The position numbers and the translations under genes were made by a program. A stretch of 64,000 bases of DNA from Candidatus Aminicenantes bacterium (GTDB lineage: Bacteria > Acidobacteriota > Aminicenantia > UBA2199), in NCBI GenBank assembly GCA_963827565.1, contig CAWHBG010000003.1, positions 124,530 through 188,529 of the forward strand. Reading direction: 5' to 3'. Of this stretch, positions 24,788 to 58,892 are shown one piece after another (positions within the stretch are counted from its first letter, which is position 1; every line of letters begins with the position of its first letter). The notes beneath the pieces were generated by a model. That model had not been told where the DNA came from, did no database searches, and was given only the letters and a program-made list of their open reading frames with translations.

Positions 24788-25473
24788 AAAAAATACTCCT
24801 GGTCGAAGATGACAAAACGATCGTTGATGCCCTGACCTCGGCCCTTGGCTTTCATGATTATTCAGTTCAGTCCGCAGAGAGCAGTGAAGAGGGTTATCAA
24901 AAATTCACCGGAGAGAAACCCGACCTCCTCATCCTAGACATCAACCTGCCCGGGGCAGACGGATTCGAATTGTGCCGGAAGATCAGAAAGGAGGATCAGA
25001 CTGTTCCTGTGATCATTCTGACCGCAAGGGTGCAGGAGAGCGATAAGCTCCTGGGATTTGAGCTCGGCGCCGATGATTATGTTACAAAACCGTTCAGTGC
25101 AAAGGAGTTGATAGCCAGGATCGGAGCTGTTCTGAAGAGAGCAGAGTCAGCTCACGCCAAAAGGGGACAGACACCTTTGAAGATCGGTGAAACCGAGATC
25201 CTCCTTGAACAATTCATTATAAAGAAAGGGGGCAAAGAATCTCCATTATCACCGAAAGAGCATCAGATACTGAAACTTTTTCTGGAGAATCCCGGAAAGG
25301 TGATATCCAGGAATAAAATAATTGATGAAGTGTGGGGTGATGAATATTTCCCCTCACCGAAGACAATTGATAATTTTATTGTAAAACTCAGAAATAAAAT
25401 TGAAGAAAACCCGAAGGATCCAAGACACATCATCACCCTCCACGGAGCCGGTTACAAACTGGTCCTGGAATAA
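24784..25473 (+). CDS. OmpR-family response regulator
   Basis: ILLVEDD, PDLLILD, GADDYVTKPF, C-terminal winged helix (LRNKIE...HGAGYKL). Confidence 0.95.
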   Translation: MKKILLVEDDKTIVDALTSALGFHDYSVQSAESSEEGYQKFTGEKPDLLILDINLPGADGFELCRKIRKEDQTVPVIILTARVQESDKLLGFELGADDYVTKPFSAKELIARIGAVLKRAESAHAKRGQTPLKIGETEILLEQFIIKKGGKESPLSPKEHQILKLFLENPGKVISRNKIIDEVWGDEYFPSPKTIDNFIVKLRNKIEENPKDPRHIITLHGAGYKLVLE

Positions 25474-25820: not shown

Positions 25821-25986
25821 GGGAGCGGTATCATTCTTAGATTCAAATCGTCACAAGAAGTATGTACGAAGTAAAACATATGATAAGGGAAACAATAATG
25901 ATTACCTAATTGTTACTAATTGATTACAATTAAGAGACCTCTTTTTATTTGATCCATATTATTATGATGTTGTAAAAGGAGAGAAC

Positions 25987-42205: not shown

Positions 42206-44332
42206 TTAAAAACCAAGAGCCGCTATAGAATCTTTAAGGATTTTCGCAATATACGGAGCATTGTGGATGTACCCGTGAGGTTCCTTTTTAGACATCTGGA
42301 AGTTGTATGCTGCTCTTAACAGAGAGCCATTAAACTGGTAGCCATTTGCCCGATTTGCTTCCTCAGGATCAGGGATCCCATTCCCGTTAAGATCATTTAA
42401 GAAATAGGGGTAATTGTGAGCATCCCATACGATCGGAGACCCTATCCTCTTTCCATAAGCCTGGATCGCAGCATAAAGTTTATCTTCCAAACCTCTGATC
42501 TCACTTTCCATAGATTCCGTTTTATCACCGTCACCATCGTAATCAGGTATATTTGCAGGACGAATTCCGCTGAACTCGAATTTGGCAGGATCTGCACCCG
42601 GATTAGGCTGTGATACATCCTCACCATGACAATTCACACAATCTGCAGGATTAGGTTTATGTACATTATGGCCATTGTTCGGGTCTTTTCCCTTTGTTCC
42701 CATATGACATTCAACACAGGTAACAAATTTTCCGTCATGGTTCGGGAACATAGATCTTCCGGGATAAGTTTTTCCAGAGTATTCATATCCCCCCTGAACT
42801 TCACTGCCAAAATATATCGCAGCTGCAGGAAAATAGTGAATATTTGTAAACGAATAGGGTCCCGGTCCACCCGAGATCTTGCTGTCTACTGATGACTTTG
42901 AGGCTCTGCCCTGGTGGCATGCCATGCAGAGATTACTTGAATCACCGAGATCAACACTGACCCCTGATGGAAACTTAACTTCAGATAACTGATGAAGAGC
43001 AGGAGGTCCCGTGTGGCATGTTGTACAGAGCATACCATTCGCAAGTGGTTCCGGAAATTCATTCAACCCTGTTGCTGCAAATTTTGCCAGCCCTGTTGCT
43101 GAATGGCACCTTGCACAGCTAGCCTGAACTTCACCGTCACCATCCCAATGTCTCCACGCTTCAGAAGAACCATCGAAATGGCCTTCATCTGTCCTGCTCA
43201 TTTTTGACATATCAATTCCACCGGTCTTTGTATTAAGATCTGCAATGGAATCATACACAAGCTGGATAATATATTTTCCACCGTGAGCGAAACCGCCAAG
43301 ATCCTTTTTCGAGAACTGATAATTATATGCTGCCCTTGCAAGTCTCGGTGTAAACATATTGTAGGCATTTGCATAGACTGCTTCACTCTCTTCAATAGTA
43401 CCATTATCATTAGTGTCTTTGAAGAAATAAGGATAGGCTGCGGCATTATATCCGATCGTGGTCCCGACCACTTTCCTTGAATAGATGATGATCGCATTAT
43501 AGAGTTTATTCTGAAGTGTTTTCAATTCATAATAGATTCCTTCAGTTGTATTCCCGTCACCATCATAATCTACAAGAGAACCGAGATAACGAATATCATG
43601 GAGATCTTCCTTGCTTTCTATCCCGGGATGACAGGTATCACATTGTTCCGTCTTTACATGAAGTGAATGAGAATCATGACAATCGGTACATGAAGTGTAT
43701 CCTTCTACATGTCCGAATTTAGCATCATAGGTCTTGCCTGAATACTCATATCCCCCTTTCGCCAGGGTTCCGTTTAATGTGGCACCTGCAGCAGCATAGT
43801 GAACATTCCTGAACCTGACCGCGGGAGAAGGTGTATCTTCTGCTAACCCTGCATAAGAAGCATTAACCGATACAGTAGATTCCCTGCCCTGGTGACAATT
43901 CATACAGATACCTTCATTTCCAAGCGGTTCATGGGTACCATCCTCTTTAAGCGGACCTCTTATTGTAAGCCCGGAAGGGAATTTTACATTTGCATAAATC
44001 CTGGTTGTCCCATTTTCAACATCCGTATGACACACTTCACATGTGAACGAACCCGGTTCATGGTCATTTGTTACAGCACCGTTATCTGCAAACTCAATTG
44101 CACCGGCAGCACTGTGGCATTTAGCGCAGCCTGCCGGAACCAGAGCAGGATCATCCTCATTCCAATGGACAAATGCTTCAGAAACTGAATCATTATGGCC
44201 GGAATCGGCAAACAATGACTCCTGTACACTTTCGAACATTGCTTTATCCATGTTACAGGACTGCAGAATAAACAATCCTGTAATAAAAACAAAACAGATT
44301 CCGATTATTGATAAATTTTTTGTTTTATTCAT
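42206..44332 (-). CDS. Decaheme c-type lipoprotein built from two tandem pentaheme modules; putative surface terminal reductase/oxidase
   Basis: Lipobox FILQSC; 10 CxxCH (CAKCH, CEVCH, CMNCH, CTDCH, CDTCH / CARCH, CTTCH, CMACH, CVECH, CVNCH); the two halves align motif by motif. Confidence 0.85.
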   Translation of the reverse strand: MNKTKNLSIIGICFVFITGLFILQSCNMDKAMFESVQESLFADSGHNDSVSEAFVHWNEDDPALVPAGCAKCHSAAGAIEFADNGAVTNDHEPGSFTCEVCHTDVENGTTRIYANVKFPSGLTIRGPLKEDGTHEPLGNEGICMNCHQGRESTVSVNASYAGLAEDTPSPAVRFRNVHYAAAGATLNGTLAKGGYEYSGKTYDAKFGHVEGYTSCTDCHDSHSLHVKTEQCDTCHPGIESKEDLHDIRYLGSLVDYDGDGNTTEGIYYELKTLQNKLYNAIIIYSRKVVGTTIGYNAAAYPYFFKDTNDNGTIEESEAVYANAYNMFTPRLARAAYNYQFSKKDLGGFAHGGKYIIQLVYDSIADLNTKTGGIDMSKMSRTDEGHFDGSSEAWRHWDGDGEVQASCARCHSATGLAKFAATGLNEFPEPLANGMLCTTCHTGPPALHQLSEVKFPSGVSVDLGDSSNLCMACHQGRASKSSVDSKISGGPGPYSFTNIHYFPAAAIYFGSEVQGGYEYSGKTYPGRSMFPNHDGKFVTCVECHMGTKGKDPNNGHNVHKPNPADCVNCHGEDVSQPNPGADPAKFEFSGIRPANIPDYDGDGDKTESMESEIRGLEDKLYAAIQAYGKRIGSPIVWDAHNYPYFLNDLNGNGIPDPEEANRANGYQFNGSLLRAAYNFQMSKKEPHGYIHNAPYIAKILKDSIAALGF

Positions 44333-44346
44333 CTTTTTTTCCTCCG

Positions 44347-46209
44347 TTATTTCCAACTGTAACCAAAGGAAACTTCAAATATATTGGCCTTATAGTCATT
44401 GTAGCCAAAATCATTTTCCTTAAAATCAACATACCTGTAATTCAACTGACCGATAAAACCTTTTTCACAAAAATACTTGAAGAATAATTTAAGGTTGGTT
44501 CTCGTCAGTTCCCAGGATCCATTATTAATGTAATAATTAAGATAAGCACCGAGTCCAGTCTTATCACTCAGCTTTGAATAGATATAAACATCAAAAAGAT
44601 TCGAGGTTCCCTCAAAAAGAATATCCCATAAATAGGTCCCTTCACCACCAGTCCATGAAGGAGGATAATAGATTCCCCTTTCCCCTTTCCGCGTCACATC
44701 TATCAGAGCATAACCCGCTGAGAAATGGAGTTTTTTCTTATATATACCCATTCTCAGGTTCAATTGATTCTTGTCAGATTCCCACATTTCACCTGACTGA
44801 TCACTTTTAGACTTATTGAGAAGATATGAACCGCTGAAATAGAGATCCTTTTTCTTATATTTTGCAGTAAGCCTGAATCTGTGAAAATCTGTCGGTGAAA
44901 TAAGAGTCAGAGGATTATCATAAGTTCCATACTGATAATCTGCCGTAACCTTTAATTTCTTTGAAGGCTTCCAGTTAAGGTTTCCGAATAATCCCATTTT
45001 AGAAGTTGCCTCATTGTAATCTTCGATCACAACATCATCCTGAACATCTCTCTGCTCCATCCTGTATCCGAGAGTGAATCCGAATTTTGTACTTGGCTGA
45101 TACTGAAGACCTGCTTCCACGCCACCGGTCTCATATTTCAGGTCCATTAAGGTCTTAACTCCCTCAACGATCATTGAACCGGTCTGATCAAAATTATTAT
45201 AGAAAGTAGTCCCGACCAGAGCCATTTTATCACTCAGGAAATAGGTGAAGTCGAGATCATAGATCTGGGATTTTCTTGAAAAATCCCCTTTCCCGTTATA
45301 ATCATAAACAACAGGAACACCGATATGATCAGCACCCATTGCCTCTTCACTGTAGGTAAAATCCGTATTCTGATCCAGGATCTGAAGACTACCTTTCAGG
45401 AGTAATTTTCTGAACGGGTTATAAGTGAATTTTGCCGTGTGAGTATTTCCCTTCATGTTGTACGGCATATTCAGGCTGAAATAATTGAGATAAGTGGGAT
45501 ACCTGGCGAAATCTCCTCCATCAGCATATCCGGGGAGGAACATACTGTTCGCATTTTCAAAATCGATGAATTTTTCTTCAAGGACAAATGCGAAGTTTTT
45601 CCCTGCATAATCAAAGCCCAGAGTAACTTCTGTTGACATCTCATCGATAGGTTTATCAAATTCAAATTCAACTCTTCCAATATCGAGTGTATTTATGCTC
45701 ATACCCTTTTTTGTATAACTGTTAAAATCAATATAGGCATGAGATCTTTTCCCAAGCCACACTTTAAATAATCCCGAGTCGTTGATACGGTCAAATGCAA
45801 AAGTATGAAAATCATGGCCCTCAAGATGATCGTTATAAAAATATTCTGATTTTCGTCTGTCGAATTTGAACTTATACTTTCCGCTCTTCATAATATCAAG
45901 TCCCATACTTTCGAAAGGATCGCCGCCGAAGTTGTTAACGTATACATTCATATAATCAAAATATTTATTCAGCTTCCCGACCGGGGCAAAATGGATCTTA
46001 AAGTTAAAGAGCCTGAGCCCGTCCCCCAGGTTAATATCTTCTTTATACTTTGATTCAACTCCGCTTATATCAACAAATCTGTATCCGACAATGAACTTGC
46101 CGTAAAACTCATCCTCAGTTTTCTCTTCAGCATTAAGGGATACTGATGATATAAATCCGCAGAACAGGATAACCATTAAAATAGTTAAAAATGATTTATT
46201 TCTTTTCAT
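44347..46209 (-). CDS. MtrB/PioB-like outer-membrane beta-barrel porin
   Basis: Signal peptide, aromatic-rich alternating strands, C-terminal FEVSFGYSWK; lies directly after the decaheme MtrA. Confidence 0.78.
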   Translation of the reverse strand: MKRNKSFLTILMVILFCGFISSVSLNAEEKTEDEFYGKFIVGYRFVDISGVESKYKEDINLGDGLRLFNFKIHFAPVGKLNKYFDYMNVYVNNFGGDPFESMGLDIMKSGKYKFKFDRRKSEYFYNDHLEGHDFHTFAFDRINDSGLFKVWLGKRSHAYIDFNSYTKKGMSINTLDIGRVEFEFDKPIDEMSTEVTLGFDYAGKNFAFVLEEKFIDFENANSMFLPGYADGGDFARYPTYLNYFSLNMPYNMKGNTHTAKFTYNPFRKLLLKGSLQILDQNTDFTYSEEAMGADHIGVPVVYDYNGKGDFSRKSQIYDLDFTYFLSDKMALVGTTFYNNFDQTGSMIVEGVKTLMDLKYETGGVEAGLQYQPSTKFGFTLGYRMEQRDVQDDVVIEDYNEATSKMGLFGNLNWKPSKKLKVTADYQYGTYDNPLTLISPTDFHRFRLTAKYKKKDLYFSGSYLLNKSKSDQSGEMWESDKNQLNLRMGIYKKKLHFSAGYALIDVTRKGERGIYYPPSWTGGEGTYLWDILFEGTSNLFDVYIYSKLSDKTGLGAYLNYYINNGSWELTRTNLKLFFKYFCEKGFIGQLNYRYVDFKENDFGYNDYKANIFEVSFGYSWK

Positions 46210-46219
46210 GATTATGCTC

Positions 46220-47029
46220 CTATTTCAAAAACAGCTTATCCAGATTTGATCCGTGGATAGCTGAATGGCAATTTGCGCAATTAGTGTCACTGGCAATGAA
46301 TCTTGTATGCCAGTCCGGAGCAGTCGCATGACAGCTGAAGCACAATTCCCTGACACTCTGATGTTTTAGCATATGCCTGTTTGGTGAACCGTGGACATCG
46401 TGACAAACAGTACAGCCTTCTACTCTTGAGGCTTCATGTTCGTGTATGAACGGACCGCCTTTATCCCGGTGACATTTCAGGCAGGATTCCTGTTTGAATC
46501 CGCCAAGCCTCTGGCGTGTTGCACTCTCATGAGGATCGTGGCAGGAGGTACATTCAAGGATCCCCTCACCAACACGATGTTTCTCATTCAGACTGAACTC
46601 TGCGGCTACATCCTGATGACAGGAAGCACAAATTTTTGTCTTAAGTTTTGCCATTGAATTCACTTTCTTATGAATGCCGTGACATTTTGTACAGTCTATA
46701 CCTGCTTTGGAATGTTCACCATTCATAAACCCACCTACAACAGATTTATGACAGGATAAACATTGTTTTGATTTCTGAAGTGCTGTTTCATTTTTAAAAG
46801 AAAAAATATTTCCCGCTTCGGCATTATCCAGATGTCTGGCAGAATTACCATGACAATCGGTACATTTACCATTGGAAATACCATGAGCAGTTTCAGAAAA
46901 TTTCATGGAAACTCCATCATGACACTCAGCACAGACATTTTCGGATTCCTTTTCTCCGTAAATATCAATCGAAAGAAATAATGTCAGGCTTAGCATTAGT
47001 AAAAATATTCCTAAAATTTGTTTCCTCAC
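46220..47029 (-). CDS. MtrA/DmsE-family periplasmic decaheme cytochrome c
   Basis: 10 CxxCH with MtrA-like spacing (CTSCHDPH, CLKCH..KGGPFIHEH, CTVCHDVHGS, CFSCH, CANCHSAIHGSN). Confidence 0.9.
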   Translation of the reverse strand: MRKQILGIFLLMLSLTLFLSIDIYGEKESENVCAECHDGVSMKFSETAHGISNGKCTDCHGNSARHLDNAEAGNIFSFKNETALQKSKQCLSCHKSVVGGFMNGEHSKAGIDCTKCHGIHKKVNSMAKLKTKICASCHQDVAAEFSLNEKHRVGEGILECTSCHDPHESATRQRLGGFKQESCLKCHRDKGGPFIHEHEASRVEGCTVCHDVHGSPNRHMLKHQSVRELCFSCHATAPDWHTRFIASDTNCANCHSAIHGSNLDKLFLK

Positions 47030-47207
47030 TTTTACCTCCTCTACATTTATTTGAATTTTTTATCATTCTTAAAAAAAAATTTCATTTTAACAATATAAAA
47101 CTGTCCATACCTAATATAATCAGTTTTGTTTTAATTACAATTAAAAAGATTTTTTTAATACTCATAACCGTTACAGCAAACATACGCTTCCTCTGTTTTC
47201 AAATTCC

Positions 47208-47259
47208 ATGACATATTCATGACTTTTATTACTATAAATTGCATATGCAACCATGTCAA
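47208..47259 (-). promoter_or_regulatory. Sigma70 promoter plus shared operator for the mtrA-mtrB-decaheme unit
   Basis: -35 TTGACA (47254-59), 17 nt, -10 TATAGT (47231-36); operator GTCATG-AAT-ATGTCAT (47208-23); palindrome TTGCATATGCAA in the spacer (47239-50). Confidence 0.72.
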
Positions 47260-47590
47260 TCATATTAAGGTTGATTTATGGGTTGATTTTAAATTCGCGT
47301 TTTACAACCATAGTAGTATTCGCTCTTTTTTTTCATTAAGACTTTTTTCCTAGATTTTTCAGTGTTGAAGAACCGAATAGTAATAATTTATTTCTATTTT
47401 AACTGCTTTTTTTCCTCTGGTTTTAGATTATTAAAATATTCATGAATTTTTTCTTAGGGCTAAGTACCAATTTTTTTATGGTTGAATATCCAGATAAATA
47501 GCATTAAATTATTTTACTTGTTCTGATACAGTTAACGATTTTTCAAATCAGGTTGAAACTCCCTCTGCTTTTTAAACCACCGGGAAAATA

Positions 47591-48535
47591 TTATTTATTA
47601 CGTCTCGATTTTCGCAGTAAAATTTTATAGCTTCGTTTGAAAATGTTAATACTTTCTTTAATTCTGCCGTTCTTTTCCAGTATCTCCCCGGCTTTAAAAA
47701 CTGCCGGAAAAAATGAGGGTTCCAGCATGGCAAATCTTAATAAATTCGAGAGGTTCTCTTCTGAAGGATCAGCGGAGGACAGGCTCAGATAAAGACCGAA
47801 CTTCAACCTCTTTGAATCATTATTTTCCAGGGCACCCTTAAAAAGAACCACCGCATCATTTGCTTTATCCTGTTCCAGCAGAATGAATCCATATCCTAAA
47901 TGGGCTTCAATATTTTCACTATCCTTTTCAACAGCTTTTTTATACATCATTCCTGCAAGCTGGTAATTTCTATCAACTATCAGGGTGAAAGCCTGTTCTA
48001 ATACTCTGTTCTTTTTCCTTTGCACAAGTTTAATATCGGTTTCTTTATAAACATTTCCCGGCTTCTCACCCTTTTCAAGAGCGCTCAGGTGACTCGTAAA
48101 GAACATTCCGAGGTTCGGTCTGTAACTTACAATTACCGAGTTAAGGATACCCGCTTCATCAATGAAAAGGATAGAAGGCATTACCACTATTCCGAAATCA
48201 GCATAAATTTTCCTTTGAGGATCGTTCAGTTTTTTTCTGTTCCCCTTAAATTTATCAAACAGGATCAATATTCTATTATCAGTTTCAGCATTCGTATCAA
48301 CAAGTACAAAACTGATCTTTTTTACCGAATTATAAGATTTTAGAAATTGTCTTAAAAAAGCTACTGACCTGAGATCATCAGACTTCAGATACAGCAGAAC
48401 TGTTTTCCCCTGACCCTCTATAAACTTAAGTTCTTCAGTTAACGGAACTTTGTCACCTACCTTTATTTCCCTCAGCCCCTCAACATCTGCCGGGAAAATA
48501 TAAAAGGTCAGCAGGAGGGTGAGAAAGATCCTCAT
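47591..48535 (-). CDS. Exported protein with a redoxin-like N-terminal domain (no CxxC) and TPR repeats
   Basis: IKVGDKVP...IYADFGIVVMPSILFIDEAG; AGMMYKKAVEKDSENIEAHLGYGFIL. Confidence 0.65.
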   Translation of the reverse strand: MRIFLTLLLTFYIFPADVEGLREIKVGDKVPLTEELKFIEGQGKTVLLYLKSDDLRSVAFLRQFLKSYNSVKKISFVLVDTNAETDNRILILFDKFKGNRKKLNDPQRKIYADFGIVVMPSILFIDEAGILNSVIVSYRPNLGMFFTSHLSALEKGEKPGNVYKETDIKLVQRKKNRVLEQAFTLIVDRNYQLAGMMYKKAVEKDSENIEAHLGYGFILLEQDKANDAVVLFKGALENNDSKRLKFGLYLSLSSADPSEENLSNLLRFAMLEPSFFPAVFKAGEILEKNGRIKESINIFKRSYKILLRKSRRNK

Positions 48536-49818
48536 GTACCCTTCACCTTTTTATTTCTGTCATATGAATATTCTTTATGACATCCAGGTGCACAACTCCC
48601 CCCGGATTTGTTTTTCTCAAATCCGATCGGCAGGCTCCATTTTCCGAATGGAGTATCTTTTCTGATATGTTTCGGCAGATTACTGGCGTGGATCTCATGA
48701 CAGGCCCTGCAGGTCCTCCCTTTCTCTCTGTTCACATGAACATAATGGAGATTCCAGTCCCCGTCACGAAAATTTGTGAGCGCAACAGTTCTTTCTGTTT
48801 TTGCCAATTGCTTCTCATGACAATCAAAACACGAATCATATTTTCTCTCTTCATACACCGTATAGAACTCTTTGGGGAAATTACCTTTTAAAAGCATATA
48901 AAAATCAGACCCATGCGGGTTATGACATCCGCTGCAGTTCCCGTCCTTGATCGGCCCATGTTTGAATTTATTCCTGTTGACTATTTTAAAGATATTATAA
49001 TCTTCCCCATCCGTACCGATAATTTTTTTATCATGGCAGTCCAGACATAATTTTAAAGGTGAAATCCTGAGATTATTATCATAAAGCGATCCATGAGCAT
49101 CATGGCAGTTGTAGCATTTTTTAGCTTCATTGACGACCTTATGCTTGAACTTTGCAATATCCACTTTATCAGTTATCTTCTTATGACACTCATTGCAGAG
49201 CTTTTCTCTGTCTGCTATAAGCTGATATTTGTGATCGGATGAGTGGGAACTGTGGCACTTCTGACACCCCTCTTTCATCGGTGTGTGCATCTTTTGATCG
49301 GCCCCCGAATAATCTTTATCCGAGTGACATCTGGTGCAGATGACCTTTAGCGGTTCTACCAGTAAAAATTTGTTATCTGAACTATGCGACTCATGGCACA
49401 ATGAACAATTTCCTGAAGCATTGGGGCCATGGACAAACTTTTTTCTCATGGCATCAGAATCATGACAATCAAAGCATACAGTGTCTATCCTCTTCTGTTT
49501 TAAAAATGCTTTATTATCGCCACCATGAGAAAAATGGCAGTCGGTACAGTCTCCGGAAGATATTGGTTCATGAACATTTTTCTTTGTTGTCTGATCATCA
49601 TGACACTCGTTGCAGTGATCATTTATATTTGGGATCTTTTTAAATTTGTGATCGCCGGTTTTCTCATGGCAGGTAAGGCAATCATCCTCGACAGGTGCAT
49701 GGATAACCTTATAACCTTTCATGTTTTTGTGACATTCTGAAGTCACACAGCTCTTTTCAGCCCCATTCATAAATGCAAAAACAAACAGCATAGCTAATAA
49801 TGCGATAAAAATTTTCAT
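48532..49818 (-). CDS. Periplasmic multiheme cytochrome c, 15 heme motifs
   Basis: 13 CxxCH plus CVTSECH and CAPGCH; repeated H-x-P...CxxCHxxHxS...LCxxCH units. Confidence 0.9.
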   Translation of the reverse strand: MKIFIALLAMLFVFAFMNGAEKSCVTSECHKNMKGYKVIHAPVEDDCLTCHEKTGDHKFKKIPNINDHCNECHDDQTTKKNVHEPISSGDCTDCHFSHGGDNKAFLKQKRIDTVCFDCHDSDAMRKKFVHGPNASGNCSLCHESHSSDNKFLLVEPLKVICTRCHSDKDYSGADQKMHTPMKEGCQKCHSSHSSDHKYQLIADREKLCNECHKKITDKVDIAKFKHKVVNEAKKCYNCHDAHGSLYDNNLRISPLKLCLDCHDKKIIGTDGEDYNIFKIVNRNKFKHGPIKDGNCSGCHNPHGSDFYMLLKGNFPKEFYTVYEERKYDSCFDCHEKQLAKTERTVALTNFRDGDWNLHYVHVNREKGRTCRACHEIHASNLPKHIRKDTPFGKWSLPIGFEKNKSGGSCAPGCHKEYSYDRNKKVKGT

Positions 49819-49828
49819 CTAACTCCTC

Positions 49829-51508
49829 CTATTTTTCATATTCTTTCGGAGAGTGGTCATCTCCATGGCATTGCAGATAGCAATAACCTTTATTACCGAT
49901 AACATTAAATTTTAAATCTCCATTTAAGTTCGGAAAAACAGCGCTTGTATCAAAATTGATCAATCCCGGATTCCTCTGGGAGCCATGCGGATCGTGACAG
50001 ACGGAACATGGCGTGTTCTGTTCATCCACATGTTTTTTATGATATTTAAAAGTAGAAAAGTTCTCGCTCATTACCACCTCGGGCCGGTGACATTTCCAGC
50101 ACAGGTCATAGTTCGATTGCTGATAGATCATCGACGGAGCAACAATATACTTTCTCTCCAGAATATATTCGTGAATTGAACCGTGAGGTCCATTAGGCCC
50201 CACACCTCCATTCATTGTTGAGTTATTTGAATTGTGGCAGTCAGTACAATACATTCTTGATGAATTATTCCACCCTGTCCTCAAAGATGGAACAAAATTG
50301 CCACTACCTTGAGAGGCGACAGGATGATAACTTGGGTTAGAAGGTTGAAAAGCTACCCGCAAGTCCGGATTCTGGTTCAACCTCACCCGGTCGGAAATGA
50401 CATACCTCTCCTGCCCATGACACTTTAAACAGACCTCATATTCATACTGTGCTTCAGGTACAATTGTTCCTCCTAAGGTCATACCGGTTGATCCCTTTAA
50501 CCTCCCATTCAGGAAAGGTGGAGAAGACGATGATGAGTTCAATTTATGTGGATCGTGACAATCCACACATTGGGTATGTACAGAAGATGTCAGAATATTC
50601 TCGGCAGGGTCATGAATATTGTTAAAATTCTCCACATTATGGGAAAAGTTCTTTTCGACCTCACTTTTTATATCTGAGCCGGTAGTTCCATTATGGCATA
50701 CCAGACACACCTGACTATCAGCTCTTTCACTGAGCAGCCTTTCGTTACCGCCCGCGTTATGGGGATGATGGCAATTCTGGCAGGAGTTTTCAACTACTGT
50801 ATTATAACCGGAATGCGGCCATGGATTCTTCCCCGATTTATTCCAGGAAGTGGTTGAGATATCATGAGTGGAGATATTATTGTAACCGGGTAGGTCATGA
50901 CAGGTCTTGCACAATTCCCCATTAACAACACTGCTTACCAGGAATTTAGGGAAAAAATCTTCGTGGGGATCGTGGCAGGTTGTACACTGAATTTTCCCGG
51001 ATCCATCATAGCTGACTGGATCTCCGGGTCTGGGATGCACCAAATCAGCCCTGATTGAAACAGCAATCGAGCTATCAAAAGAGATCGGATGATCATCTGA
51101 AATATCCCTCCCCAGGTTGGTTTTTCTATTCCGGGGAATCCTGCCACCATCTGAATTTTTGACAGAAAGATTTTTTGGGCCTTTCAATATCTGCCCCATG
51201 GCAATATTGCCATCGTGACATGAAAGACATAGTTTTGAAGCCCCATCGGGCTGACCCAGTTTAGAATACAATGTTGAACTATCGTAAAGTGTATATTCTA
51301 CATTAGATTCTTTTCTATTCCATAGTGGCCCGTTATCAGATGACAGAACATGCGAAGTATGACAGAAGATACAGATCTGATTTGTTCCGGTAGTATTTAT
51401 CTCCCCCATACCGGAAACAGAGAGATTATGTCTTGAATGAACAATGTTTTTTGAGCCCACATTAAAAACGATCAACATTAAAATGATATATATAAAAAAT
51501 TTCTTCAT
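49829..51508 (-). CDS. Multiheme cytochrome c, 12 heme motifs, with an N-terminal OmcE-like tetraheme module
   Basis: 11 CxxCH plus CYLQCH; the N-terminal ~200 aa parallel 56249..56866. Confidence 0.88.
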   Translation of the reverse strand: MKKFFIYIILMLIVFNVGSKNIVHSRHNLSVSGMGEINTTGTNQICIFCHTSHVLSSDNGPLWNRKESNVEYTLYDSSTLYSKLGQPDGASKLCLSCHDGNIAMGQILKGPKNLSVKNSDGGRIPRNRKTNLGRDISDDHPISFDSSIAVSIRADLVHPRPGDPVSYDGSGKIQCTTCHDPHEDFFPKFLVSSVVNGELCKTCHDLPGYNNISTHDISTTSWNKSGKNPWPHSGYNTVVENSCQNCHHPHNAGGNERLLSERADSQVCLVCHNGTTGSDIKSEVEKNFSHNVENFNNIHDPAENILTSSVHTQCVDCHDPHKLNSSSSSPPFLNGRLKGSTGMTLGGTIVPEAQYEYEVCLKCHGQERYVISDRVRLNQNPDLRVAFQPSNPSYHPVASQGSGNFVPSLRTGWNNSSRMYCTDCHNSNNSTMNGGVGPNGPHGSIHEYILERKYIVAPSMIYQQSNYDLCWKCHRPEVVMSENFSTFKYHKKHVDEQNTPCSVCHDPHGSQRNPGLINFDTSAVFPNLNGDLKFNVIGNKGYCYLQCHGDDHSPKEYEK

Positions 51509-52443
51509 TTTTCACCTTTCACAACTTTGTAGATCTGCAGTCGATTATTATATGTATCTGCAATATAAATAAGATCATTTTGATCAATCGATAATCCGGA
51601 CGGCATCCAGAACTCTCCATCACTACTTCCAGGTCCGCCGAAATATGACAAAAACCTTCCTTGAATATTAAAAACCTGGACATTGTCAAAAATAACATCT
51701 GTCACAAAGATCCTCTTTTTACTATCAACAGCAATGCCCTTTGGCTGTGAAAACTCTCCACCGTTTTTCCCTTTTTTCCCGAACATCCTTCTAAACTTTC
51801 CCTTATGATCAAAAATCTGAACCCTGAAATTAAGAGCATCATTAACATAGATATTATCATTATCCACAGTCAGGTGTGTCGGGAAATTGAATTCCCCCTC
51901 GCTTATACCACGCTTTCCAAATTCAACAAGAATTTTCCCGTCTTCAGAGATAACAAGCACTTTATGATTCTTAGTATCTGTACAAAATACTTTTTTATCA
52001 AAACAAAAGATACCTGTTATTCTTCTAGAGGGATCGGAAATCAGAAAATTCTTAAATTTAAAACTACTTGAAAATCTGGCTATTAAACGGAGTTGTGAAT
52101 CTGAAATATAAAATCCCCCTTCCATATCAGAACTTCCGCAAACAGGGGATTGGAGATTCATTTTATTTATTCTACCAATCTTCTTTATAATTTGCCCTTT
52201 TCTGTTCAATATAATAATTTTTCCGTATATCTGATCTGTAACCCCAAGGTAATTATCATTAATAAAAAAAACTGATGCTGGTTTCACCGAATAATTAATC
52301 TTTTTCCCGAACAAAACTTTAGTTAATTTCTTGTTTTTTTTCACAGATCCAATTTCAATTGAACTAACAAATTTTATTGATTCAGAAAAACCAAATGCAA
52401 AAAATATCAGGATCAGAAGTAGCAGCAAGAAATATTTTTTCAA
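51505..52443 (-). CDS. NHL-repeat beta-propeller protein
   Basis: GKRGISEGEFNFPTHL, GKKGKNGGEFSQPKGIAVDS, GGPGSSDGEFWMPSGL, ADTYNNRLQ. Confidence 0.9.
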   Translation of the reverse strand: MKKYFLLLLLILIFFAFGFSESIKFVSSIEIGSVKKNKKLTKVLFGKKINYSVKPASVFFINDNYLGVTDQIYGKIIILNRKGQIIKKIGRINKMNLQSPVCGSSDMEGGFYISDSQLRLIARFSSSFKFKNFLISDPSRRITGIFCFDKKVFCTDTKNHKVLVISEDGKILVEFGKRGISEGEFNFPTHLTVDNDNIYVNDALNFRVQIFDHKGKFRRMFGKKGKNGGEFSQPKGIAVDSKKRIFVTDVIFDNVQVFNIQGRFLSYFGGPGSSDGEFWMPSGLSIDQNDLIYIADTYNNRLQIYKVVKGEK

Positions 52444-54395
52444 AAGATTCTCCTCAGTCTTAAAGCAAAATAATTTCTATTCCTTTGAGAATCGCTATAT
52501 TTATTTAAAATATATTCATAAAATAACTCAAGAATTATATTTCTGAAACTCCACTGAAATTTCGAAATCATACTATCTCTATCACGGAAATATGATTCAG
52601 TTTTATAATTAATGTGCCTGTAAATAACATTTAGATACATAGACGAAACAGGCTTGAAATTAATTGAACCATAATATGTGTCAAAATCTACAGAATATCC
52701 TGAAGTTTCATATTTAAGTCTGTTTATACTTGTATTGCCGGTTATTTTTATTTTATTTGTTATATTAAATCCTAAGGAGAGTCTTAAATTCCTCGAGAGA
52801 TATTTCGAAATATCCGAATTGTACTTCTCCAGATAATACTCACCATTAAAATTCCCCGAAGCAAATTTTATCCCGTAAAGACTCGTTGAGAAACTCTGGA
52901 AAGGTGAAACAATATAATCTGATGAAATATCATGATTTAGAGAGTTTAACTTAAAATATAAATAAAAATATTTAATAAAATTCATTTGTATATTCAGCTG
53001 ATTAGTCACACTTGTAAATTTATAATCAGGGAATGAAAGAAGTTCATATGAAATATGAACTCTCCCTCCCGGCGGTATTGCTCCTCCGGGAATTCTGAAA
53101 ATAGTTACCATAGACTCAAAAACCTCCACCTGATAATCTATCCCCTCCATGTATAAATAAGTAAAGTTGTTATCTGTGATATTAATACTGTCAGAACGGA
53201 CTCCAATGGTATTTAAAATAATTGAATCTGATATAGAGAAATTAATTGATTCGGAGACATACGACGAATCACTTTTTGAATTATAAGACCCGTTCTCCGC
53301 ATTATTCATATATATAATATTTATACTGCCGGATGGAATCTTTTTTCTGTACCTGAATTCTAAACCGTAAGAAAATGCTTTCAACTTTTGAAGAGTATAG
53401 CTTTCAAACCTTCCTCCCGAATTGATTTTTGTTTCAAGACTGTCAAATAGTCGATGATTAATTGAAAGTGAAATCAAATGTTTATCTCCTGTCCGGCCGG
53501 CATTATCGCTTTTTGTATATTTGTAAGAATTCAGGAAATAAAGATTGTTTTTCAAATAATGTTTTTGATAAATATCACCCCTGAACAATTCCTGATTTAT
53601 ATCACCGTCCATATTCCTGAATGAGAATAGAGCAAATACTGAATTATTCTTTTCTTTCCCATAAAACTTGCGGTAATCTGACATTATATTAAGGGATTTA
53701 TATTTTACATCAAAAATTCTTTCACTATAATCCCGTGCTTTAACTCTGACTATAGAAGTTCCTCCGGTCAGTTTTGACATATCGGTTTTTAGTTCTATGT
53801 TGTCAGTCAGTTCATCCCTTTCCATATAAGAAATAGATTCCGATTTAAAAATATTCCTGTAAACATCAATTTTAAAGGGTATTATCTTATTTGATGAAGC
53901 AAGTTTAAATCCGTATTTATTTGAATAGAGGAAAAACCTCTCTGAGAACCTTCTGTCAGCAGCTGCATAATCTTTTCGGGCATATAGCTCTAAATTTGTT
54001 GTTTTTCTTTTAAGGAACAATAAATTTATATTGTAATTATTGTTCAATGAATTATTTAAAGATTCATCTGAAAAAAAAATCGATTTTGTTTTATTTGCAA
54101 TTAAATTCAGATCAACATTGAACGTGAGTAAATTAGGATGGTATACACTCCCGTTAAAATTTAACGTTAAGCCGCCCTCAAGATAATTTCTGTTGACTTT
54201 GGAGAACAGATTATTGAAACTGGAATCTTCCTCAATGGTTTTTTGAAACTGAAAAACCAGAGCACCGCTTAAATCATTTAGAACAAAAAATTTGGAGCCT
54301 GAACCAGATCCGTTTAACACTCCTTCGGGATATAAATTTTGGCTGAATATAATTAATAGAGCACAAAAAATTATTATAAAACTTCTATTCTTCAA
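52440..54395 (-). CDS. Outer-membrane beta-barrel (porin-like) of the cytochrome operon
   Basis: Signal peptide, aromatic alternating strands, C-terminal YFALRLRRIF. Start set at TTG 54395, just past the upstream stop. Confidence 0.7.
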   Translation of the reverse strand: MKNRSFIIIFCALLIIFSQNLYPEGVLNGSGSGSKFFVLNDLSGALVFQFQKTIEEDSSFNNLFSKVNRNYLEGGLTLNFNGSVYHPNLLTFNVDLNLIANKTKSIFFSDESLNNSLNNNYNINLLFLKRKTTNLELYARKDYAAADRRFSERFFLYSNKYGFKLASSNKIIPFKIDVYRNIFKSESISYMERDELTDNIELKTDMSKLTGGTSIVRVKARDYSERIFDVKYKSLNIMSDYRKFYGKEKNNSVFALFSFRNMDGDINQELFRGDIYQKHYLKNNLYFLNSYKYTKSDNAGRTGDKHLISLSINHRLFDSLETKINSGGRFESYTLQKLKAFSYGLEFRYRKKIPSGSINIIYMNNAENGSYNSKSDSSYVSESINFSISDSIILNTIGVRSDSINITDNNFTYLYMEGIDYQVEVFESMVTIFRIPGGAIPPGGRVHISYELLSFPDYKFTSVTNQLNIQMNFIKYFYLYFKLNSLNHDISSDYIVSPFQSFSTSLYGIKFASGNFNGEYYLEKYNSDISKYLSRNLRLSLGFNITNKIKITGNTSINRLKYETSGYSVDFDTYYGSINFKPVSSMYLNVIYRHINYKTESYFRDRDSMISKFQWSFRNIILELFYEYILNKYSDSQRNRNYFALRLRRIF

Positions 54396-54396
54396 C

Positions 54397-55020
54397 TTAC
54401 TCAGCACCTTTTTTGCCTTGATTAAGATCAGACCTTTGTTTGTCACTTTGTTTATTAAGAAGAATATCAATATTACTTTCTTTCAGAAAAAATTTATTAC
54501 CGGAAACATGGGGCTCATGACAATCGAGACAATTATCGCCTTTGCAGGGTAGTACCTGGTTGGCAACAGGTGTCCTGTGGCATAGGTCACATAACTTCCT
54601 CCCCTCTTCCAGTAAAAGCTTCCTATGTTTTGATCTGTGTGGATCATGACAAACATTGCAGGCTTTTACTGCAACCGGCCCATGAACAAATCTTCCGGAA
54701 AATTTCTCCTTTTTATGGCATGTAAAACAAATTTCTTTCCGATCCGTTTTCAGGAAATTTGAAATAGTCCTGGAATGACATTTTGAACACTCTTTTGATT
54801 TGTAATACGGATGAATTGATTTAATTTGAACCATATTTTTCCTTCTGATCAATACATTTTCATTTTTTTTTATTTGAGGATTTTGAGTTTCCACTTTTCT
54901 GGAAGGAACCCCATCAAAAAAGACGGACAATAAATTTTTATTCTTTTCTACATTACATGAAATTATAAGCAGAAATGGTAATATAAAAAGCAAAATCAAT
55001 GATCTATTTTGTTTTTTCAT
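54397..55020 (-). CDS. Pentaheme c-type lipoprotein
   Basis: Lipobox LLIISC; CSKCH, CFTCH, CNVCH, CDLCH, CLDCH. Confidence 0.88.
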   Translation of the reverse strand: MKKQNRSLILLFILPFLLIISCNVEKNKNLLSVFFDGVPSRKVETQNPQIKKNENVLIRRKNMVQIKSIHPYYKSKECSKCHSRTISNFLKTDRKEICFTCHKKEKFSGRFVHGPVAVKACNVCHDPHRSKHRKLLLEEGRKLCDLCHRTPVANQVLPCKGDNCLDCHEPHVSGNKFFLKESNIDILLNKQSDKQRSDLNQGKKGAE

Positions 55021-56095
55021 ACTTTCCAAAAGCATATACATTAACTTTGTTTTGACCAAATTGAGATGTTACAAACAGCAGATATTCAGCTTTAAAATCA
55101 GGGGATATATATTTTTTAAAATATTTTATATTATCATAATCCAGACATATTGCAGCTGGCAGAACCACATTGTGCCTTTCAGTTCCTCGACCCAGCATAA
55201 AAAGCAATAATTTATGTTCTTTATTGAATATTTGAACATTCTCAAAAGCAGAATCCACCACTAATATTCTTCCATCTTTATCAACAGCAATTCCTTTAGG
55301 CCTTGTAAAATCTCCCGGCCTTTGTCCTATTTGTCCAAAACTGGATATATGTTTTCCGCTAATATCAAATATATTAACTCTGAAGTTTGTTGTATCTGAA
55401 ATGTATATTTTATCTTTAAAAATATCAAGATTTGACGGGTGATACAATTCATCTTCATTATGTCCGATAGACCCTATCCTTTTTTCGATCTCTCCTGTAC
55501 TTTTATTAATAACTAAAACCTGGTGACTCTTCAGATCTGTAATATAAATTTTACCTTGATAGATCAGAATATCTGCAGGGACATATTCATCTGTTTTTCC
55601 AAAAACAGTTTTTACTTTCCCTTCCAGATCAAAAACAACGATCTGTTTCCTCTGGGTATCTGTAACATATAAAAGACGGTCATCTTTATCAATAAATAAA
55701 TTTACAGGTTTTTTTAATCTGCCTGAACCGGTTACTCCCATATATCCAAAAGTCCTTTTTTTAAGGTTCATTACAATAACAGCATTTGATCTCAGGTCAC
55801 AGACATAGATCACTCCTTCAAAAATCCCTACCCCATAAGGTTTTTTTATAGGTAGAACTTTTAACTCTTTTTCCCCCGCTACAAATTTAAAAAGTGAGCT
55901 TTTCTGCTTAATATCACTTGAATCAGAAAAAGTTGTTAAATATTGGAAACGGGGTGTGTTAGGAAGGGGGGGATAAAATATAAAATCTTTTTCTGGTTCT
56001 ATCTGGGGACGTTTGACTCCACACCCCACAAATAATATCAATATTCCAAAGCATATAATAAATAATTTCAAACCTATTTGCTGTTTCAAGTTCAA
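55004..56095 (-). CDS. NHL-repeat beta-propeller lipoprotein
   Basis: Lipobox LFVGC; YPPLPNTPR; GQIGQRPGDFTRPKGIAVDKDGRILVVDSAFENVQIF. Confidence 0.88.
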   Translation of the reverse strand: MNLKQQIGLKLFIICFGILILFVGCGVKRPQIEPEKDFIFYPPLPNTPRFQYLTTFSDSSDIKQKSSLFKFVAGEKELKVLPIKKPYGVGIFEGVIYVCDLRSNAVIVMNLKKRTFGYMGVTGSGRLKKPVNLFIDKDDRLLYVTDTQRKQIVVFDLEGKVKTVFGKTDEYVPADILIYQGKIYITDLKSHQVLVINKSTGEIEKRIGSIGHNEDELYHPSNLDIFKDKIYISDTTNFRVNIFDISGKHISSFGQIGQRPGDFTRPKGIAVDKDGRILVVDSAFENVQIFNKEHKLLLFMLGRGTERHNVVLPAAICLDYDNIKYFKKYISPDFKAEYLLFVTSQFGQNKVNVYAFGKYEKTK

Positions 56096-56196
56096 ATCTC
56101 CTTAATACTTGTTATTATAGCTTATAAAAAATATAGCAAAAGCAAATCCAAAAGAAAACTATATAGGTAATACACATAAATTTTTTTAAATTTTAT

Positions 56197-56226
56197 AAAA
56201 AAAAACCCCTCCTGAGAGGGGTTTTT
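56197..56226 (-). terminator. Rho-independent terminator directly after the OmcE-like gene
   Basis: AAAAACCCCTC-ctga-GAGGGGTTTTT (56201-56226) with a T9 run on the minus strand. Confidence 0.85.
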
Positions 56227-56248
56227 ATTTGGTTTCAGCCCTTAAATT

Positions 56249-56866
56249 TTATTTGTCGTGACAGGTCAGACAGAGAGCACTATTTGCATTAGATTTGATC
56301 AGAAGATGGCCTGTAGGTCCAAGATCATTTCCATCATGAACATCATGACATGAAGCACATTCTAGGCTGTTTGAAAATAACATATCAGCTGCTATTGTAC
56401 CACCCAAACCTGAATTGGCTACTGAAGGATTATGAAGTTCCCCATCCGCAGTTGCAAGTGCAGTCGTATAATCAAATGAGATCGGATGATCATTGCTGAG
56501 ATCAGTGCCAAAAAGAGCACCACCGGTAATATTTTCAGTACCAGTTGCACCTCCAAAACTATCCAGAGCAACAGATCCGTCATGGCAACTCAGACAAAGA
56601 AGAGATACACCGGTAGGGGCCGTTGGTACAGCGTTCATAGTTCCGCCGGAAGGATATAAGGTGTAAGTAGATGTTGAGACTTCATGGTTCCATAAAGGTG
56701 CACCTGATACTGATGCATCACCGTTATGAGGCGTGTGGCATGGCAGACATATTTCCCCATTTGTGGTCCATGATTCGGCTGAGAAATCATGGCCGGTACC
56801 GGAAATTGCACTATAAACAAAAGCTGCCACAGCAAGTGAAAGTAAAATAAACAAGGCTTTTTTCAT
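56249..56866 (-). CDS. OmcE-like secreted tetraheme cytochrome c (candidate nanowire subunit)
   Basis: Signal peptide; GHDFS, EICLPCHTPHN, PLWN, YTLY, SLLCLSCHDG, GTDLSNDHP, LECASCHDVH, ALCLTCHDK-stop. Motif order matches G. sulfurreducens OmcE as recalled. AAGGAG RBS before ATG 56866. Confidence 0.82.
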   Translation of the reverse strand: MKKALFILLSLAVAAFVYSAISGTGHDFSAESWTTNGEICLPCHTPHNGDASVSGAPLWNHEVSTSTYTLYPSGGTMNAVPTAPTGVSLLCLSCHDGSVALDSFGGATGTENITGGALFGTDLSNDHPISFDYTTALATADGELHNPSVANSGLGGTIAADMLFSNSLECASCHDVHDGNDLGPTGHLLIKSNANSALCLTCHDK

Positions 56867-56893
56867 AAATAACTCCTTTACATTTAGTTTTAT

Positions 56894-56948
56894 ATGACAT
56901 TCCCATGACATACAGAAATAATATAGTCTGTATACTTAACCATGTCAA
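56894..56948 (-). promoter_or_regulatory. Sigma70 promoter plus shared operator for the OmcE-like operon
   Basis: -35 TTGACA (56943-48), 17 nt, -10 TATATT (56920-25); operator GTCATG-GGA-ATGTCAT (56894-56909). Confidence 0.75.
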
Positions 56949-57071
56949 TTTCATAAAGGTTTATTTTTAGTTTGATTTATTTTTTTTTATTATGCAACTT
57001 TAGTTGCAAAAACAAATATAATTATGGTAATACTATATAGGAAAACAATAGAAATTCAGCGAGGAAACCTT

Positions 57072-57821: not shown

Positions 57822-58892
57822 TTGTCTCAAAAGAACATATCGACAATTCTTGTTATTGATAACATACTGAAAGGGCTGAGTGCATTTATCCCGCTTCTCA
57901 GAAATGATGAAGTGAAATTTCTCATCACTATTGATCCCGATGAGGCTCTGTCAATAATCAAAACTACCAATGTTGATGTTGTACTCATCTGCTCACACTT
58001 AGAAAAAAAAAGCGGTATGGTGACAGGAGAAACCATTATGGAAATGTCACCCGGCACCCGGGTCATCTTATTTACCGAATACCCCTCATTCGAGACTGCG
58101 ATCGAGGCCACTAAAAAGGGTTTCTTTTATTTCCTGGAAAAATCGACACCGATCGAAATAATAAGGGAAAAAGTTGCCGAGGCGATCCGGTGCGGTACCT
58201 CTTCAGGTAGCAAGCTGGCAGAACAAAAACAGAAAACCTGTTTAAGGTTCATTACCATCTGCAAACATTCACTCATAATTGATCAGATAAAGTTGATCTC
58301 AGATGAAAATATCTGCCTTGATTATTCCCGCAATTTCGATTCAATTATAGAAATTAGCAGGGCTGAATTCCATAAAGAAACCGATCTTGCGATGGTGTGC
58401 GCATCCTGCAGCTTTACAGATCTGGAAGCATCAATAATATCGATAAAACAATTGTACACACTTTTTCCTTTTATCAAGATAATAATTTTTAATGAAAATT
58501 ATACAGATACGGAAAAGGCAAAATTACTGAAATTGGGTGTAAAAGGTTTATTCGGAAGCGAGATGACATCAGCATTGATCCAGAAAGCCCTTCTGGTGAT
58601 CAGGGATGGCGGAATCTGGGCGGAAAGAAAAATACTTAATCTTGCTATTGAACCGGACATTGCCCAGATAAGTAAAATGCTTTCAGATTACAACGATTCC
58701 TACAACCTCTCCCTCAGGGAGAAGGAAATTCTACAGACATTGGTTCTCGGGATCAGGAACAAGGATATTGCGGACCGTCTCTACATTAGTGAAAAAACAG
58801 TTAAAACACACATAAACAGAATATTTAAAAAACTTGGCGTTGACTCCAGGGTAAAAGCGATCCTCAAGGCAAAAGAGGAAAAACTGGTCTGA
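57822..58892 (+). CDS. Atypical regulator: two receiver-like domains + LuxR HTH
   Basis: ILVIDN...DVVLIC...RVILFT...YFLEK; second domain DLAMVC...GVKGLF; LSLREKEILQTLVLGIRNKDIADRLYISEKTVKTHINRIFKKLGV. Confidence 0.85.
   Translation: MSQKNISTILVIDNILKGLSAFIPLLRNDEVKFLITIDPDEALSIIKTTNVDVVLICSHLEKKSGMVTGETIMEMSPGTRVILFTEYPSFETAIEATKKGFFYFLEKSTPIEIIREKVAEAIRCGTSSGSKLAEQKQKTCLRFITICKHSLIIDQIKLISDENICLDYSRNFDSIIEISRAEFHKETDLAMVCASCSFTDLEASIISIKQLYTLFPFIKIIIFNENYTDTEKAKLLKLGVKGLFGSEMTSALIQKALLVIRDGGIWAERKILNLAIEPDIAQISKMLSDYNDSYNLSLREKEILQTLVLGIRNKDIADRLYISEKTVKTHINRIFKKLGVDSRVKAILKAKEEKLV

Follow-up and report, generated by a model that had tools for sequence, protein, structure and literature searches.

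Within a stretch of 64,000 nucleotides (nt) from the uncultured Candidatus Aminicenantes bacterium (contig CAWHBG010000003.1 of assembly GCA_963827565.1, positions 124,530 to 188,529; hereafter the window) two promoters preceding genes of multihaem cytochromes carry, at their predicted transcription starts, a direct repeat of the type TGTCAT-N5-TGTCAT. The first of them, P1, precedes the gene of a secreted OmcE-like tetrahaem cytochrome, the second one, P2, the operon of an MtrAB-type conduit. The repeat is a real, non-random cis-element, which is supported by its 21 exact occurrences in 11 related genomes versus two for the reversed control. With somewhat better than even confidence we regard it as the site of an OmpR/PhoB-type regulator which would activate the gene of a TonB-dependent receptor outside the window and repress both cytochrome promoters. 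The genome, designated G000, comprises 3.30 Mb in 5 contigs. Unless stated otherwise, coordinates are those of the window and elements lie on its minus strand. The elements of the two promoters are the following:

56894..56978, minus strand: P1 regulatory module, about -56 to +20, with A-rich upstream element, -35, -10 and direct-repeat operator, delimited by sequence reading and by block-wise conservation in G002, G003, G004, G007 and the metagenome locus L198
56961..56978, minus strand: P1 upstream element AAATCAAACTAAAAATAA, consensus AAATCaAaCC-TAAATA, found at constant distance from the -35 throughout the six genus members and still present in P2
56943..56948, minus strand: P1 -35, TTGACA, invariant in the orthologs
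56920..56925, minus strand: P1 -10, TATATT, behind a 17-nt spacer, a promoter-scan match of 11/12 and invariant in the orthologs
56894..56910, minus strand: P1 operator TGTCATGGGAATGTCAT, i.e. TGTCATgggaaTGTCAT, with two TGTCAT half-sites at a period of 11 base pairs (bp), predicted +4 to +20
47208..47289, minus strand: P2 regulatory module, a diverged copy of P1 present in this genome only, according to its colinear alignment with P1 of six genomes and a reciprocal unique blastn match
47254..47259, minus strand: P2 -35, TTGACA, from sequence reading and promoter scan
47231..47236, minus strand: P2 -10, TATAGT, behind a 17-nt spacer, a promoter-scan match of 11/12
47208..47224, minus strand: P2 operator AGTCATGAATATGTCAT, i.e. 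aGTCATgaataTGTCAT, predicted +1 to +17

Both promoters have a TTGACA-like and a TATAAT-like hexamer with a 17-nt spacer between them ahead of a gene, and each is the best sigma-70 match of its own region in the promoter scan (11/12). The core TTGACA-17-TATAnT is common in this genome, with 309 sites at 11/12 or better, 211 of which lie outside long open reading frames (ORFs). Therefore it is the extended identity and the repeat rather than the core hexamers which distinguish the two promoters. The 12-mer ATTGACATGGTT, found at 56949-56938 in P1 and at 47260-47249 in P2, and the pattern GTCATG-N3-ATGTCAT have exactly two matches each, both in the window and in the 3.30-Mb genome searched on both strands, and these are P1 and P2. 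In P1 the latter pattern is the 16-mer GTCATGGGAATGTCAT (56909-56894), separated from the -10 by 10 nt, with TGTCAT starting 9 nt past the -10; in P2 it is the 16-mer GTCATGAATATGTCAT (47223-47208), 7 nt after the -10, the full operator starting 6 nt after it. The two 16-mers are identical at 13/16 positions, and GTCAT recurs in them with a period of 11 bp. A preliminary description of this DNA had reported precisely this design, namely the identical 12-mer, 17-nt spacers and TATA(T/G)T -10 boxes, followed 7-10 nt later by the 16-mers with their GTCAT repeat, and all of it was found again; the suspicion that the motif might merely occur at background frequency is not borne out by its two matches in 3.30 Mb. 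At P1, two identical hexamers stand in direct orientation at an 11-bp period (TGTCAT-N5-TGTCAT). The P1 upstream element is a possible UP element or site of a second factor.

P1 was compared with the corresponding regions of five congeners (G001, G002, G003, G004 and G007). Its blocks are kept in five of the six genus members having the gene (G000, G002, G003, G004, G007) and in one metagenome contig: TTGACA-17-TATATT, a 9-nt discriminator (ATTTCTGTA in most of them), the repeat TGTCAT(G/A)GAAATGTCAT and the leader, the repeat being present in three phased copies in G002. The 17-nt spacer is different in every genome and saturated with changes, and the downstream protein is just 57-68% identical, from which it follows that the conserved blocks are under constraint. 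The ATGGTT which follows the P1 TTGACA is specific to G000 and not kept in the orthologs. G001 has kept the promoter and lacks the repeat, which is also absent from more distant relatives. A metagenome-wide pattern scan was too unspecific to extend this comparison, as 79 of 80 contigs among the matches listed were unrelated and only L198 was of the P1 type. Since the repeat lies merely 27 nt from the start codon (ATG) of a protein with a clear signal peptide, it cannot be an upstream activator site at P1.

For P2 the comparison leads to a different picture. The genus is represented by eight species-level genomes, within which the presence of P2 was assessed. Orthologs of the mtr operon, 83-86% identical and located on the same contig as the cytochrome gene, exist in G002, G003, G004 and G007. 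The upstream regions of these four operons contain neither a P1-like promoter nor a TGTCAT repeat. They carry, upstream of a TATAAT, two adjacent palindromes TGTTCAAAATTGAACA-N2-TGTTCAATTTTGAACA of the type TGTTCA-N4-TGAACA, situated about 190-230 nt upstream of mtrA (loci L031-L034 of G002, G004, G007 and G003, in this order). This palindrome is essentially private to the mtr upstream regions of the four congeners and has zero copies in G000, where the region upstream of mtr has lost the palindromes and contains about 90 extra nucleotides. In a colinear alignment, this extra stretch matches the P1 module between AAATCAACC (-56) and the repeat, -35 and -10 included. The alignment is best with the P1 of G000 itself (z = 10.6, about 68% identity, one 3-nt indel) versus z = 4-8 with the P1 of five other genomes, and the P1 and P2 regions are mutually the sole secondary blastn match in the genome. 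Judged by these alignments, P2 is a lineage-specific, diverged copy of about 85 nt of the P1 module (-56 to +20) which displaced the ancestral mtr control region. What follows the module is the remainder of the older sequence:

47030..47207, minus strand: mtr-operon leader of about 180 nt, a remnant of the ancestral promoter region, with homology to the orthologs resuming at TGCTGTAAC

Within this leader, the ancestral TATAAT reads TTTAAT in G000. A search of the leader for RNA families in Rfam gave no match, and its predicted fold is not unusual. A 33-codon ORF (47183-47082) possesses a good ribosome-binding site, is not conserved in the relatives and was rejected as probably not being a gene; it spans the junction of copied module and ancestral sequence. 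A search of sequencing runs for mapping the start sites revealed no RNA run with this locus; three DNA runs which were listed contained neither this strain nor the P2 region.

As part of the explanation preferred here, and only together with it judged somewhat more probable than improbable, the OmcE-like promoter would have acquired the repeat within a subclade of the genus, and the mtr promoter would have gained its copy of the module in G000 only. The preliminary description had taken the shared design as a property of a single system, and in this form the idea does not stand: the design is not ancestral, four orthologous mtr promoters carry another operator, and P2 is a copy specific to G000. 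Conservation among orthologs is accordingly divided, the P1 repeat being found in four congeners and one metagenome contig and the P2 design being absent from all four mtr promoters.

The copy relationship raises the question of whether the repeat in P2 is used at all. It might be a mere relic of descent, with the mtr operon transcribed from a strong constitutive promoter and no co-regulation conveyed through the repeat. That P2 is a paralogous copy of P1 known from one genome only agrees with such a view, as do the mismatch in its first half-site (AGTCAT-N5-TGTCAT) and its distance from the -10, which is 3 nt shorter than in P1. Moreover, the shared ATGGTT is a lineage-specific derived state rather than a conserved element. 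Against this, at an overall identity of about 68% P1 and P2 agree chiefly in the upstream element, the two promoter hexamers and the repeat and have drifted apart in spacer and discriminator, a pattern which is expected under selection and which argues for the blocks still being in use. In addition, the P2 repeat is still the third-best non-coding site in the genome. We therefore consider a relic improbable, although among the alternatives to the reading preferred here it is the one to be taken most seriously.

The ranking just mentioned stems from a matrix built from sites outside G000 and applied to the 6.6 million positions of this genome. It places P1 first, the site at the receptor gene second and P2 fourth; the third match (C3:1015702) lies inside the gene of a membrane protein and is probably due to chance. 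The 21 exact sites in the related genomes belong for the most part to three classes of orthologous intergenic regions, namely P1, the stretch preceding a gene resembling phosphatidylserine decarboxylase (psd-like), and the gap between a regulator gene and the TonB receptor gene. The psd-like class comprises G002, G003 and G007 (L134, L126 and L118, respectively) and is not kept in G000, where a degenerate TGTCAA-N5-GTCAT alone is found (C1:70480-70800). A large regulon was considered and rejected, as the 23 sites within one mismatch genome-wide are mostly coding and compare with roughly 15-20 which, by our own reckoning, base composition would produce.

The receptor class points to the protein which might bind the repeat. 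In G000 an exact copy (C1:295905-295921, outside the window) is located between a regulator gene (C1:295192-295881) and the gene of the TonB-dependent receptor. Exact or near-exact copies occur at the orthologous position in G001-G006, G009 and G028, which belong to three genera, and G026 contains a similar exact site on a different contig. At the receptor locus a -35-like hexamer, TTGTAA or TTGAAA, begins about 6 nt past the repeat, and TAAAAT or TAAAAA comes 16-18 nt after that; relative to these predicted hexamers, the repeat occupies an activator position. The regulator, a protein of 229 residues, is encoded together with a histidine kinase directly upstream of the receptor, which is of the haem/transferrin type. 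In a family scan the kinase revealed no recognisable sensor domain. The order of the intact locus in G004 is kinase, sigma-54 regulator, kinase, regulator, repeat, 751-residue receptor and PAS protein. We would like to note that in G000 several genes, among them the receptor gene (C1:295991-298217) and phoR (C1:279288-280824), are split into adjacent frames; since the orthologs are intact in G004, this suggests indel errors of the long-read assembly rather than pseudogenes. G000 possesses four Trans_reg_C genes, and the regulator at C1:295192 is the sole one of them with TGTCAT repeats adjoining. Predicted from this adjacency and from a geometry typical of the family, it is most likely the best candidate for the binding protein. 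A search of solved structures with its sequence yielded generic family matches (RegX3, MtrA, DrrD).

The following mechanism would account for these observations. An OmpR/PhoB-type winged-helix response regulator would bind TGTCAT-N5-TGTCAT head-to-tail on one face of the helix. At the receptor gene it would activate transcription from upstream of the -35-like hexamer; at P1 and P2, the phosphorylated regulator, bound just downstream of near-consensus sigma-70 promoters, would block initiation. One signal would thereby turn on the receptor while shutting down the OmcE-like tetrahaem gene together with the MtrAB-type conduit. The copy of about 85 nt of the P1 module, in replacing two ancestral TGTTCA-N4-TGAACA palindromes, would have brought the conduit into the same regulon. 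The position of the repeat at the predicted start (+4 to +20 in P1, +1 to +17 in P2) fits a repressor and a common control in G000, where P1 and P2 are probably repressed by one and the same regulator. The preliminary description's proposal of one repressor sitting at the start of both units is upheld to this extent; its use of the shared sequence as an argument is weakened, since part of it, ATGGTT for instance, goes back to shared ancestry. The binding protein, the direction of regulation, the start sites and the signal we infer from position and gene neighbourhood; that the signal might be haem or iron supply, with an iron-sparing logic, is a guess from the family of the receptor.

Other binding proteins were suggested in the preliminary description, namely the OmpR-type regulator encoded at 24784-25473 or the LuxR-type protein encoded at 57822-58892, and neither fared well. 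In G000, G001, G002 and G004 the former is encoded at a distance of 22-30 kb from the cytochromes, and its recognition helix (PKTIDNFIVKLR) resembles that of the regulator at C1:295192 (PRTIDNFILKFR), 10/13 core positions being alike. However, another conserved repeat, TTG(A)TTAC with a period of 10-12 bp, precedes the next gene downstream in five genomes (in the window TGATTAC / TTGTTAC / TTGATTAC at 25899-25927, upstream of a 474-residue gene), which is probably the regulator's own site, and no TGTCAT repeat is present nearby. In all genus members the LuxR-type gene stands directly beside P1 in divergent orientation. Yet together with a 265-residue gene it adjoins P1 in G001 and G028 as well, both of which are devoid of the repeat. 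GerE/LuxR-type dimers usually read inverted repeats, and for such a protein a conserved palindrome is available:

56993..57008, strand not assigned: palindrome TGCAACTAAAGTTGCA between P1 and the divergent 265-residue and LuxR-type genes, conserved in all six genus members including the repeat-less G001

This palindrome is a separate candidate operator and would be a natural candidate site for the LuxR-type regulator. As an element shared by both promoters it (TGCAAC-N4-GTTGCA) was rejected, P2 being without a copy; elsewhere in the genome it has two exact intergenic copies, both inside a repeated element of about 200 nt. Recognition of the TGTCAT repeat by either of these two proteins thus appears quite improbable.

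Slightly less probable still is that the pst-linked PhoB recognises the repeat as a classical Pho box, which would make the cytochromes phosphate-responsive. In its sequence form the repeat is identical to E. coli pho boxes, and PhoB is the best or near-best family match, below the cut-off, of both the regulator at C1:295192 and the pst-linked one. Since the reduction of iron oxides releases bound phosphate, such a link would also be geochemically sensible. But the pst/pho locus of G000 (C1:278800-281730) contains no TGTCAT repeat within one mismatch. At the usual places of Pho boxes, before pstS and a divergent porin gene, it shows TTAAC(A/T) direct repeats with an 11-bp period, which probably serve G000 as Pho boxes, in this case ones of Bacillus/cyanobacterial and not of E. 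coli type. The motif stands before cytochrome genes and not before pst/pho genes, and the box is found 6-9 nt downstream of a -10, behind a perfect TTGACA, whereas a true Pho box would take the place of the -35 about 10 bp before the -10. Finally, in three Bacteroidota genomes the exact repeats inspected are without an evident pst/pho neighbour, as far as ORFs read by eye can tell. The fourth regulator of the family in G000 (C2:702610) is encoded within an efflux operon.

That the repeat acts as an RNA element of the 5' leader, or that its reverse complement ATGACA is the -35 of a divergent promoter, seems very improbable: it would indeed be transcribed at P1 and P2 (predicted +1 to +20) and possibly on a read-through transcript at the receptor locus, and the promoter scan lists ATGACA-17-AATAAT and ATGACA-16-TACTAT on the opposite strand, but Rfam gives no match, the leaders fold no better than shuffled sequence (z = -0.4, -0.8 and +0.2), the recurrence of identical hexamers every 11 nt is the mark of a site in double-stranded DNA, and a -35 would leave the second hexamer and the sites at the receptor and psd-like genes unexplained and, at P2, would belong to a promoter facing the end of a gene.

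Several points weigh against a regulator which represses both promoters through the repeat and activates the receptor gene. Apart from the imperfect first half-site of P2 and its altered offset from the -10, part of the similarity between P1 and P2, including ATGGTT, is common descent, and P2 exists in one genome only. At P1 the entire leader is conserved, so that what keeps the repeat intact is inseparable from whatever else constrains this region. Regulator and site are connected by adjacency and a family-typical geometry, and G001, whose P1 is without the repeat, has the regulator at C1:295192 as well, as do G005 and G006, which are without such a cytochrome gene. The likeness of the regulator's recognition helix to that of the 24784 protein might permit cross-binding. 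The best families of the receptor are those for haem, haemoglobin and transferrin, with scores of 238 and 228 bits which are under the cut-offs (238 versus 323 bits), and the signal is correspondingly weakly based. Start sites and direction of regulation are predictions.

The genes under the two promoters are the following:

56249..56866, minus strand: secreted, OmcE-like tetrahaem cytochrome of 205 residues, first gene after P1, with Paired_CXXCH_1 and Cytochrome_C7 matches and orthologs
56201..56226, minus strand: intrinsic terminator immediately 3' of the 205-residue gene, with an 11-bp stem followed by a T-run
46220..47029, minus strand: DmsE/MtrA-like decahaem cytochrome, first gene after P2 (TIGR03508, 171.5 bits, under the 192.2-bit cut-off)
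44347..46209, minus strand: MtrB/PioB-like outer-membrane barrel (PF11854, 25.4 bits, cut-off 23)
42206..44356, minus strand: multihaem lipoprotein of 716 residues, last gene of the conduit operon, from its translation and weak multihaem family matches

The tetrahaem cytochrome, whose start codon is the ATG at 56866, has a clear signal peptide; the gene of the decahaem protein starts with GTG at 47029. Since the terminator, which is strong and bidirectional, directly follows the 205-residue gene, P1 firmly controls this gene alone, and the accessory genes downstream have to rely on read-through or on a promoter that escaped our notice. They encode NHL-propeller proteins, further multihaem cytochromes and a 676-residue protein for which the family searches of the window proteins gave no match. 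Of the 'nanowire operon' of the preliminary description, the first gene is thus the only one firmly assigned to P1. The divergent neighbours of P1 are the 265-residue gene and the LuxR-type gene mentioned above.

The association of the repeat with OmcE-like genes is not limited to the genus. Among 37 OmcE-like loci from many phyla with enough upstream sequence, three Bacteroidota genomes have TGTCATGA-N3-TGTCAT in exact form, placed directly after ATATTTG and some 65-75 nt before the OmcE-like start codon; in one of these genomes, 4.2 Mb in size, it is the sole exact copy. On a contig of another one (L273:9543-12274) the OmcE-like gene is tandemly duplicated, each copy having its own promoter and repeat. 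In two of the three genomes there is an orphan regulator which matches the regulator at C1:295192 in 11/15 helix and 8/12 wing residues, compared with 6/15 and 4/12 for the 24784 protein; in the third genome no similar regulator was found, which counts against the regulator proposed here. This recurrence widens the link between motif and gene, while the identity of the binding protein remains less than certain. The regulators of both phyla have the recognition helix (R)T(I/V)DNFIL-FRK-F in common, and the repeat directly follows the predicted -10 (or -7). It is conceivable, albeit unlikely, that TGTCATG-N4-TGTCAT is a cross-phylum gate for genes of OmcE-like cytochrome filaments, operated by one dedicated class of two-component regulators, which in Aminicenantes would be tied to a TonB receptor of the haem type. 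If true, cytochrome nanowires would have a first general rule of regulation (off by haem or iron supply), and a sequence tag to find them would be at hand.

Some further features of these Bacteroidota loci may be recorded. The tandem duplication on L273 is a second case of module copying. The clusters L272 (G061), L274 (G062) and L273 (G063) are homologous to the first cytochrome unit of the window; all three also share an inverted repeat, CTGCnTTTTCGCAG, some 85 nt further upstream, and have an FNR/CRP-like gene where the window has the LuxR-type one.

To our knowledge, little is known about the control of extracellular electron-transfer cytochromes in uncultured bacteria, and a search of a limited collection of papers found nothing on it. 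The present analysis offers a testable regulon consisting of one small motif, three sites in G000 and one favoured regulator among four candidates. It also provides an example of regulatory rewiring, in which a promoter-plus-operator module of about 85 nt was apparently copied before an Mtr-type conduit and replaced the ancestral operator. The predicted outcome is a filament subunit and a conduit under one signal in this lineage and not in its relatives. The recurrence in Bacteroidota suggests that the rule may extend past the genus.

The kind of mechanism proposed is ordinary, as it amounts to a tandem site of the OmpR/PhoB type serving as operator. The pho box of E. coli, e.g. that of pstS (TGTCATAAAACTGTCATA), is an 11-bp direct repeat, and PhoB is described as a dual regulator whose effect is set by the position of its site (PMC10294691). 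With this system the present one shares the hexamer, the 11-bp geometry and the orientation on the coding strand, and its candidate regulator belongs to the OmpR/PhoB family. Unlike in E. coli, the pst/pho genes of G000 have boxes of the TTAAC type, the candidate is another paralogue, whose gene adjoins that of a TonB receptor, and the site in the cytochrome promoters lies downstream of the -10 in place of substituting for the -35. Repression by OmpR-family proteins binding over or just after the start site is exemplified by CovR and by PhoP of B. subtilis at tagAB. Similarly, we propose that a winged-helix protein binds in tandem where a strong promoter initiates, with activation elsewhere from upstream sites; in contrast to CovR and PhoP, the predicted targets are cytochromes of extracellular electron transfer in uncultured Aminicenantes. 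HrrSA and ChrSA of Corynebacterium exert haem-responsive two-component control over genes of haem uptake and use as well as over cytochrome genes. The proposed coupling of an uptake gene of the haem/iron type with haem-rich respiratory proteins would resemble theirs, although here the signal is guessed from a sub-threshold match of the receptor and the sequence relation to these regulators is at the level of the family only.

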